A stretch of DNA of 62,962 bases, filler included, from Collodictyon triciliatum (Eukaryota): NCBI GenBank assembly GCA_043381765.1. It is 13 parts of 13 records of this genome, joined end to end, with 100 filler letters (N's around TTAATTAATTAA, not from the genome) between each part and the next. Parts side by side here need not be neighbours in the genome. Positions count along the whole stretch, not along the records: positions 1 to 4,725 come from JBHJMP010005801.1; 12 more parts are not named here. One strand, written 5' to 3'. Made by a program: the position numbers and the translations under genes. Positions 3,802-4,725 of this stretch are shown in pieces (positions within the stretch are counted from its first letter, which is position 1; the number at the start of each line of letters is the position of its first letter). The notes under the pieces were generated by a model that was not told where the DNA came from, did not search any database, and saw nothing but the letters and a program-made list of their open reading frames with translations.

Positions 3802-4725
3802 ATGAAGAAAAGAAAACGTCTTGAGTTTGAGAATCTAAAGTCTGTAAAACCAGACCATCGAAATGAGAACATCTCTAAAGTCGACTGTAAAGAATCCGGA
3901 TGGTTATGGCAAAACCAACGATGCGGTTTTATTGCATTATAATTTGGTTACCGACACTTATCTGTTTGCAAGATGTTACATATTGAAATCACAACAACCC
4001 CCAACAATCGATGAAACGTTTTTTTTTTTTTTTTTGTAAGCTTTAAAGACAGTCGGAATATTTTCACAAGATAGACCCGCAATATTAAAACATCCAGATA
4101 TGAGAGATGACATGATGACTTTTTACCTCTACGATTTCCGATTCCATTTGTCTCGAGAAGAACGCTTTCCGTTTGTTGGATTGTCTCGTGTATTACCGTA
4201 CTTGGCGAAGCAAATGTTGATAGCTTATCATAATAACATTAATTAAAGCCAACACCCCCCCTCGGTCCTGCACAAAAGTTGAAAGGAAGAATAAAAAAAA
4301 ATCATAATAACATTAAGGAACCTTTCGTAAAGAGGTTACTGCGCTTTACAAATCAAACAGTTCCTAAAGATGAGAATATTACGGGAGCTATTAAAAGGCG
4401 GAGTTACGAAAGTTGAAAAAGCCATATTCAAGAAACTCGAAATATCAGAACAATATAAATAATGAGCTAAAATGCATTTGCATCATATCATTCCCAGCGA
4501 TATTGTAAATGATATCGAATATGACGTCAAAGTCAATCAAAATGAGTACACTCCATTTCTGATTAAGATGAATCGCATTTTTGAGGACATTGGAACCAAA
4601 CAGTTACAACCAATCTCTATAAGAACTAACAATACACCGGGTCATATTACTCTAGATACTGCATGTTTGATAGGTCTATTAGTATTATCTGGAAAAACAT
4701 CATTACTGAATAATATATCAGGATG
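3802..4725 (+). pseudogene. Decayed Fanzor1-like (eukaryotic TnpB-derived RNA-guided nuclease) gene, N-terminal half, cut by the contig end
   Basis: Stitched translation: MKKRKRLEFENLKSVKPDHR / MRTSLKSTVKNPDGYGKTNDAVLLHYNLVTDTYLFARCYILKSQQPPTIDETF / ...GLSRVLPYLAKQMLIAYHNNIKEPFVKRLLRFTN... / HIIPSDIVNDIEYDVKVNQNEYTPFLIKMNRIFEDIGTKQLQPISIRTNNTPGHITLDTACLIGLL. These resemble Fanzor1 N-terminal motifs as I recall them. Disrupted by frameshifts, a poly-T run (4019-4035), stops and a LINE insertion. No RuvC domain is visible. Confidence 0.72.
4243..4300 (+). mobile_element. 5'-truncated LINE 3'-end insertion with poly(A) and 16-bp TSD
   Basis: AAAGCCAACA...TCCTGCACAAAAGTTGAAAGGAAGAATAAAAAAAA flanked by ATCATAATAACATTAA at 4227-4242 and 4301-4316. 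Confidence 0.9.

Follow-up and report, generated by a model that had tools for sequence, protein, structure and literature searches.

A decayed Fanzor1 gene of Collodictyon triciliatum and its probable carriage by a non-autonomous Helitron1 family

The decayed Fanzor1 gene at positions 3802..4725 (+ strand) of a 62,962-nucleotide stretch of Collodictyon triciliatum DNA (hereafter the window; eukaryotic, AT-rich and interrupted by gaps) was assigned, with a probability of roughly 0.8, to a ~3.5-kb non-autonomous Helitron1 family carrying a Fanzor1 gene and a structured 3' tail, of which it would be one copy. The relic is dead and in itself ordinary; moderate interest attaches to the family, as its capture steps are traceable. 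Fanzor1 moves between transposon superfamilies and the capture route is rarely visible, and here the carrier without cargo, chimeras formed by read-through, the main family and its deletion derivatives occur together in one genome.

The relic gene and its assignment to Fanzor1

The relic starts with an ATG at 3802, reading MKKRKR, and continues on the + strand over ~280 codons in four frame pieces, the last of which is the only stretch open for more than 80 aa. An earlier note on this DNA had described this start, the four pieces (~280 aa), a series of Fanzor1-like motifs and the appearance of only the last piece in the ORF track, all of which were read again on the + strand. Alignment to homologues and sister copies identified the relic as the N-terminal ~45% of the gene, and alignment to SpuFz1 suggests that it represents the WED/REC part and stops short of the TDG motif and RuvC. 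Compared with sister copies it carries a 2-nt deletion (~3863), a poly-T run extended by 9 nt (4019-4027), an in-frame TAA (4037-4039), a 58-nt insertion (4243-4300) with a 16-nt duplication (4227-4242 / 4301-4316), a 1-nt deletion (~4392), a 3-nt deletion (~4414) and TAA TGA (4460-4465), all on the + strand. The overall damage comprises two frameshifts, three in-frame stops, which the earlier note does not mention, and one retroelement insertion, followed by an assembly gap (4726..4825). The match of contig C5801 stops at 4725 and is followed by N. For this copy, the window lacks RuvC, the zinc finger, the guide-RNA tail and the hairpin-CTAG end; RuvC and the guide-RNA region belong past the contig end, as the earlier note had said.

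The insertion at 4243..4300 (+) is the 5'-truncated tail of a poly(A) retroelement, with the 16-nt repeat as its target-site duplication (TSD), and is absent from sister copies. The same young 3' tail was found at five further window sites and in loci L058, L183, L002, L054 and L022, and 29 distinct insertions were counted in the DNA examined, 16 of them with 9-17-nt TSDs.

Homologues were compared with positions 3001-4725 using tblastn with the database size set to 75 Mb. Since 26 of the 86 full-length homologues matched at E<=0.01, the resemblance of the window gene is beyond chance. The best match was that of P0003, residues 23-288 of which aligned to 3863-4723 with an E-value of 1e-18. P0003, which is the best full-length relative, matched SpuFz1 over its whole length (E 9e-37). 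With the window pieces alone, a Pfam search returned no family of note and a PDB search matched 0 chains, which counts against the assignment. The C-terminal piece of one sister copy matched PpFz1 (E 4e-10), SpuFz1 (9e-5) and GtFz1 (0.004), the N-terminal piece of another matched GtFz1 and PpFz1, supporting a large N-terminal REC extension, and a 311-aa open piece of the family had 1602 relatives at E<=0.001. Both halves thus matched the solved Fanzor1 structures (SpuFz1, 8GKH; PpFz1, 9CF0; GtFz1, 9CER).

The Fanzor1 motif of Bao and Jurka (2013, PMC3627910), D-X(125,275)-[TS]-[TS]-X-X-C4 finger-X(5,50)-RD, was found in the majority sequence of 60 whole-gene copies; the window itself ends before the motif. 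The catalytic letters were kept in most copies (D in 50/60, E in 50/60, RD-D in 52/60 and the four cysteines in 52-55/60), and the TDG motif (WED) was read in sister-copy frames, with TEG in L022. The RuvC D-E-D and zinc finger that the earlier note had proposed to look for in other copies are therefore both present in the family majority and, together with TDG and the matches of sister copies to PpFz1, SpuFz1 and GtFz1, bear out its Fanzor1 call. The RuvC-II glutamate is also found in its rearranged position, six residues ahead of the first CxxC, a Fanzor1 trait (Yoon et al., PMC10711439). However, the DPG that the same source gives as the Fanzor1 signature at RuvC-I is replaced by DAG in 55/60 copies, whereas the 54 aligned rows hold 48 DPG and 4 DPN, and thus P in 52/54. 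Because of DAG, yet with the catalytic D retained and the family nested among DPG proteins in the tree, these sequences identify the family as Fanzor1 by descent and not as a typical working member.

The family majority keeps 57/65 conserved columns (range among 45 homologues, 50-64) and shares a ~33-aa insert after RuvC-I with P0002. It has in common with the solved Fanzor1 proteins the D, the rearranged E six residues before CxxC, the C4 finger, RD and TDG, and differs from them in its lack of TIRs, its dead copies, DAG in place of DPG and the ~33-aa insert. RNA-guided, TAM-dependent DNA cleavage is a Fanzor1 trait, and no intact copy of the family was found.

Copy number, decay and selection

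A genome search with positions 3380-4725 returned 677 candidates, of which the 40 scored were mostly 84-89% identical, and protein searches returned 486-783 candidates, with 150/486 and 134/783 scored (40-150 per search overall). The suggestion that this lineage hosts or hosted a Fanzor family is thus borne out by hundreds of copies; the accompanying suggestion that intact copies may exist was not borne out among the candidates scored, where 0/60 whole-gene copies were intact, with longest open frames of 76-311 aa, although the remaining candidates may include one. All copies seen are dead. The 60 copies were 91.3-93.9% identical to their majority (~8% away), which runs through 625 scored codons without a stop and shifts frame only at homopolymer runs whose length varies among copies. 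The family tree was star-like (terminal length 5.01 against an internal length of 0.27), and N/S ratios against neutral expectation were 0.92-1.68 in every frequency class, including variants in at least 15 copies; stops were not depleted among rare variants. These data show that a single burst of copying multiplied a complete master gene and that the copies then decayed neutrally, with no purifying selection seen. The star tree informs on the copies, and selection on the master copy is invisible to it.

L127, L139 and L180 have lost most of the Fanzor gene through the same deletion, with shared breakpoints, and both Fanzor-less and Fanzor-deleted derivatives have spread with the same flank motif as the main family. 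Because derivatives without most of the gene have spread as well, the nuclease would not be needed in cis. It is nevertheless possible, if on balance doubtful, that the Fanzor of a Helitron-borne family worked in its spread by cutting vacated donor sites and driving restorative homing. Such a role has been put forward for TnpB and suggested for the Fanzors of Helitrons, and it is compatible with the Helitron1 carrier account. The completeness of the majority gene with its D-E-D and C4 finger, a tail of four hairpins (described below) and occasional duplications resembling those of CRe-1,2,3 (PMC3627910) would fit such a role; the N/S ratios and undepleted stops, the prevalence of DAG, the spread of the derivatives and a tail without covariation argue against it. 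The existence of hundreds of copies that show neither a general TSD nor selection instead suggests that a Helitron can carry a Fanzor along as a passenger. The family is a poor source of tools. One public run, guessed to be RNA, yielded 359 contigs resembling the stretch, and these contigs are not informative on expression. Two copy pairs (L031/L026 and L027/L189) had 97-98% identical flanks and are alleles or segmental duplicates.

Ends, insertion sites and the Helitron arm

Copy coverage dropped sharply ~630 nt past the start of the RuvC match. Among 96 distinct 3' ends, 60 were exact CTAG, 30 were one letter off and 6 further off; the end-caller prefers CTAG, which biases 60/96 upward, and leaves the next base unscored, so that the count of T directly after CTAG (58/60) is unbiased. 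The second base was A in only 32/60 ends, and a Tc1/mariner TA duplication was accordingly rejected. An 18-nt stem-loop lies ~12 nt upstream of the CTAG end; its loop was forward in 75 of the 96 ends, inverted in 18 and unclear in 3, and inversion had no linked variants (12 against 46 copies), a pattern in keeping with recurrent inversion at a DNA hairpin. An ATAAA-like word was found at +4 to +14 in 38/78 flanks, compared with 15.4 after shuffling, 18 ends with a poor end match or short flank being left out of the count. Ends seen by eye were of the CTAG|T type; Helitron2 and Helentrons are marked by asymmetric TIRs, a 5' hairpin and insertion after TTTT. The family thus shows the Helitron1 traits of a 3' CTRR end with an upstream hairpin and a host T after the end.

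Spread of the copies as retrocopies by the genome's non-LTR machinery would be in keeping with their variable 5' ends and with the young TSD-flanked poly(A) retroelement in this genome, but the fixed 3' end is a hairpin-CTAG|T, is followed by no poly(A) in the Fanzor copies and comes with no general TSD. This explanation is extremely improbable and already largely refuted.

The 3' flank of L034 and position L159:1900 each show a 3' end that runs straight into the 5' end of another family member; on a Fanzor copy, such an abutment would direct the guide at the left end of the element itself.

In the unanchored test for TSDs, 1/31 copies reached p<=0.07, and an anchored permutation of 25 two-ended copies gave p 0.08-0.24. 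TSDs planted as a control (9-14 nt, 15% decay) raised score sums to at least 115, compared with 31 observed. Several copies looked duplicated by eye, but the controls disagreed and a TA or longer TSD was rejected as a family trait. The Helitron1 trait of no target-site duplication was therefore found, save for L182 with a 13/14 duplication; a few others have partial duplications of 9-13 nt (up to 14 nt), and a minority of copies with TSDs is possible. No paralogous empty site was found among the loci examined.

Upstream of the relic, the window contains a Helitron 5' arm on the + strand, the start of which lies in 2272..2383, where the first base is fuzzy (2284-2372 gave 64 candidates, 40 scored; 2319-2383 was 82% identical to the L115 arm). 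After a 415-N gap the arm resumes at 2799..2970, which was aligned with L106, L074, L115, L055 and L060, matched the L057 and L115 arms by blastn and includes the tail of a RepHel N-terminal (STPR) coding remnant (~2905-2945). A T-rich tract (2971..3083), which precedes the terminator in this genome's Fanzor-less Helitrons, leads to a junction from which the old terminator is absent and to a ~700-nt leader of the Fanzor cassette (3084..3801), with no Pfam family in six frames and no transposase remnant. A second 5' arm of the same family (9754-10330, - strand) runs into an N gap elsewhere in the window, and a short piece of the RepHel N-terminal remnant lies at 40004-40072 (- strand).

The 5' arm is the 5' part of a RepHel Helitron of this genome: in L055, L060 and L115, the long arms run collinearly with the RepHel 5' UTR and first ~100 codons and also with L106, a Fanzor-less Helitron holding a PIF1 fragment, and a translatable STPR remnant is kept in nine Fanzor-bearing loci. 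The RepHel frame of L074 (G000:C6377:627-4208) spans 1194 codons including N stretches, with STPR, Helitron_like_N and PIF1 (Pfam), and this genome's RepHel matched Helraiser at E 2e-41; the HUH/Y2 core of L074 falls in N and its contig ends in the helicase. The RepHel-cognate trait of Helitron1 is thus represented by L074/L106 and the STPR remnant of the arm. With ~900 known codons and no stop, L074 is far better kept than the Fanzor copies and is possibly a young autonomous or domesticated copy. No contig joining a RepHel core and a Fanzor was found among this genome's contigs.

Seven loci (L116, L117, L159, L106, L098, L111 and L112) have the arm alone with its own hairpin/CTAG-like terminator after the T-rich tract, and three (L113, L191 and L188) have the arm with intact terminator and then the Fanzor cassette. 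Copies of the main family, among them that of the window, lack the terminator at one shared junction, which was recognised by pattern in 43 of 68 arm-end hits, which count some loci more than once, and by eye in four more. The Fanzor terminator and those of the RepHel-derived Helitrons have different sequences. At the 5' end, where Helitron1 elements have a TC preceded by a host A, 9/42 windows matched the L110 Helitron 5' end at >=12/18, compared with 2.5% in shuffles and 5/96 control flanks; the 5' TC end is only weakly conserved and the 5' terminus fuzzy, above chance yet far from present in all. The alignment of copies proposed in the earlier note yielded a hairpin-CTAG 3' end and a probable Helitron1 carrier and left the 5' end imprecise; the host transposon, which that note had left unnamed, is more informative than the relic. 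L110 itself (G000:C4488:3800-6394) is a non-autonomous Helitron in tandem arrangement that contains a minisatellite and has its 5' end in triplicate; its junction defines CTAG|TC.

The Fanzor cassette might alternatively be an independent element, TIR-less or derived from mariner and bearing TSDs, with a coincidental CTAG end and with the Helitron arms as nested insertions. The few 9-14-nt partial duplications, the absence of the arm from L054, L056, L058, L059 and L069, and the location of the nearest full-length relatives within elements that have TIRs and in some cases a DDE_3 transposase point in that direction. However, the planted-TSD control excludes a general TSD, the +2 base is not a fixed A, most arm-end hits share one cassette junction and no cassette DNA lies within 1.6 kb upstream of the L113 arm; the transposase of the viral relative also found no match in the genome with the one query used, which does not in itself establish its absence. 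An independent element is consequently considered improbable.

The Helitron1 carrier account would begin with the entry into the genome of a Fanzor and guide-RNA cassette of the giant-virus mariner type. A defective Helitron would have landed in or before this cassette and lost or bypassed its own terminator, rolling-circle copying would have continued as far as the hairpin-CTAG that closes the Fanzor tail, and RepHel in trans would then have amplified the chimera, with the nuclease perhaps active in the master copy and guided by the host DNA after CTAG. Helibat1 and Helraiser (Helitron1; PMC4778049) are alike in their hairpin ~11 nt before CTAG, target T and AT-rich 3' flank, and for Helraiser loss or bypass of the terminator with capture of downstream DNA has been shown; an RNA-guided nuclease cassette as cargo and the weakly conserved 5' TC set the present family apart. 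Read-through of this type would account for every class seen (carrier alone, chimeras, main family and deletions), and the last hairpin may derive from either the guide RNA or the Helitron.

Origin of the cargo and related elements

In a midpoint-rooted FastTree of 54 rows the family grouped with P0029 and P0002 and next with P0003, P0004 and the viral L213/L215 (support 0.96). The closest full-length proteins, 45% identical, belong to the PGv-1 / PUl-1-type Tc1/mariner Fanzor1 elements of giant viruses (L213-L217), of which L213-L216 have 32-33-bp TIRs and a DDE transposase, some of DDE_3 type. This placement of full-length relatives in giant-virus TIR/mariner elements suggests capture, the transfer presumably having been into this genome. 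For the nearer relatives P0029 and P0004, no locus was found in viruses, and one short weak metagenome match was obtained.

Folding of the family tail gave four hairpins (z -3.9 to -4.4 in three copies), and no covariation was seen in it. Its second stem weakly resembles a viral guide-RNA stem, the first stem of the PGv-1 / PUl-1-type tails is possibly (weakly) homologous to that of the family, and the TIR-derived last stem of those tails is missing here. An HMM of family tails found no viral tail, the reverse HMM of viral tails returned 2 family tails at E ~0.6, and a covariance model built from viral tails found 1/14 family tails weakly (E 0.067). A pattern of features common to the family tail and L217, to which the family tail itself is not an exact match, picked out 104 viral stretches, and 60 of the 80 fetched lay directly behind a Fanzor. 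Homology of the family tail to viral guide RNAs is suggestive only, and the tail is a candidate for a guide RNA that reads into the flank. Two viral guide-RNA-like tails (L229 and L296) have no Fanzor gene directly upstream and are possibly ghost elements.

Fanzor in Helitrons has been published in detail for Helitron2, as CRe-1, 2 and 3 of Chlamydomonas with Fanzor1 in non-autonomous elements (Bao and Jurka, 2013, PMC3627910), others being listed without detail in the parts of the literature drawn on here (also PMC10530073 and PMC10432273). No description of a Helitron1 case was found in that literature, and Repbase or supplementary tables may hold one. The present family resembles CRe-1,2,3 in its non-autonomous Helitron 5' end with Fanzor1, constant 3' end, variable 5' part and internal deletions. 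It differs in having Helitron1-type CTAG|T ends, a gene readable without introns, and capture intermediates and a RepHel remnant that are still visible; TSDs of 7-19 bp occur in 10-70% of CRe copies (PMC3627910), whereas no general TSD was found here. Whether a Fanzor aids Helitrons and causes the odd Chlamydomonas TSDs is treated as open in the literature (PMC13565253, section 6.2; PMC10288648).

It is conceivable, though unlikely, that a canonical Helitron1 captured a giant-virus-type Fanzor cassette in such a way that one structure came to serve both as the final guide-RNA hairpin and as the rolling-circle terminator. The master copy would then have made an active nuclease whose guides, each beginning at a host T site similar to the left end of the Helitron (T..ATAAA), allowed it to cleave donor sites that the element had vacated, or even left ends at the junctions of circles or tandem copies. 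In that case, the family would have arisen independently in eukaryotes as a parallel to the TnpA/TnpB pairing of IS605, and the intermediates of its assembly would have been preserved.

Two further genes were observed. At 6007-9474 (- strand) of the window, an AlaDh/PNT-like region (weak, E 7e-4) is fused to NRPS condensation and adenylation domains, which we take to resemble a saccharopine-dehydrogenase / aminoadipate-reductase (Lys1-Lys2-like) fusion. A leucine-rich-repeat open frame of 679 codons was found at L077:1-2040.
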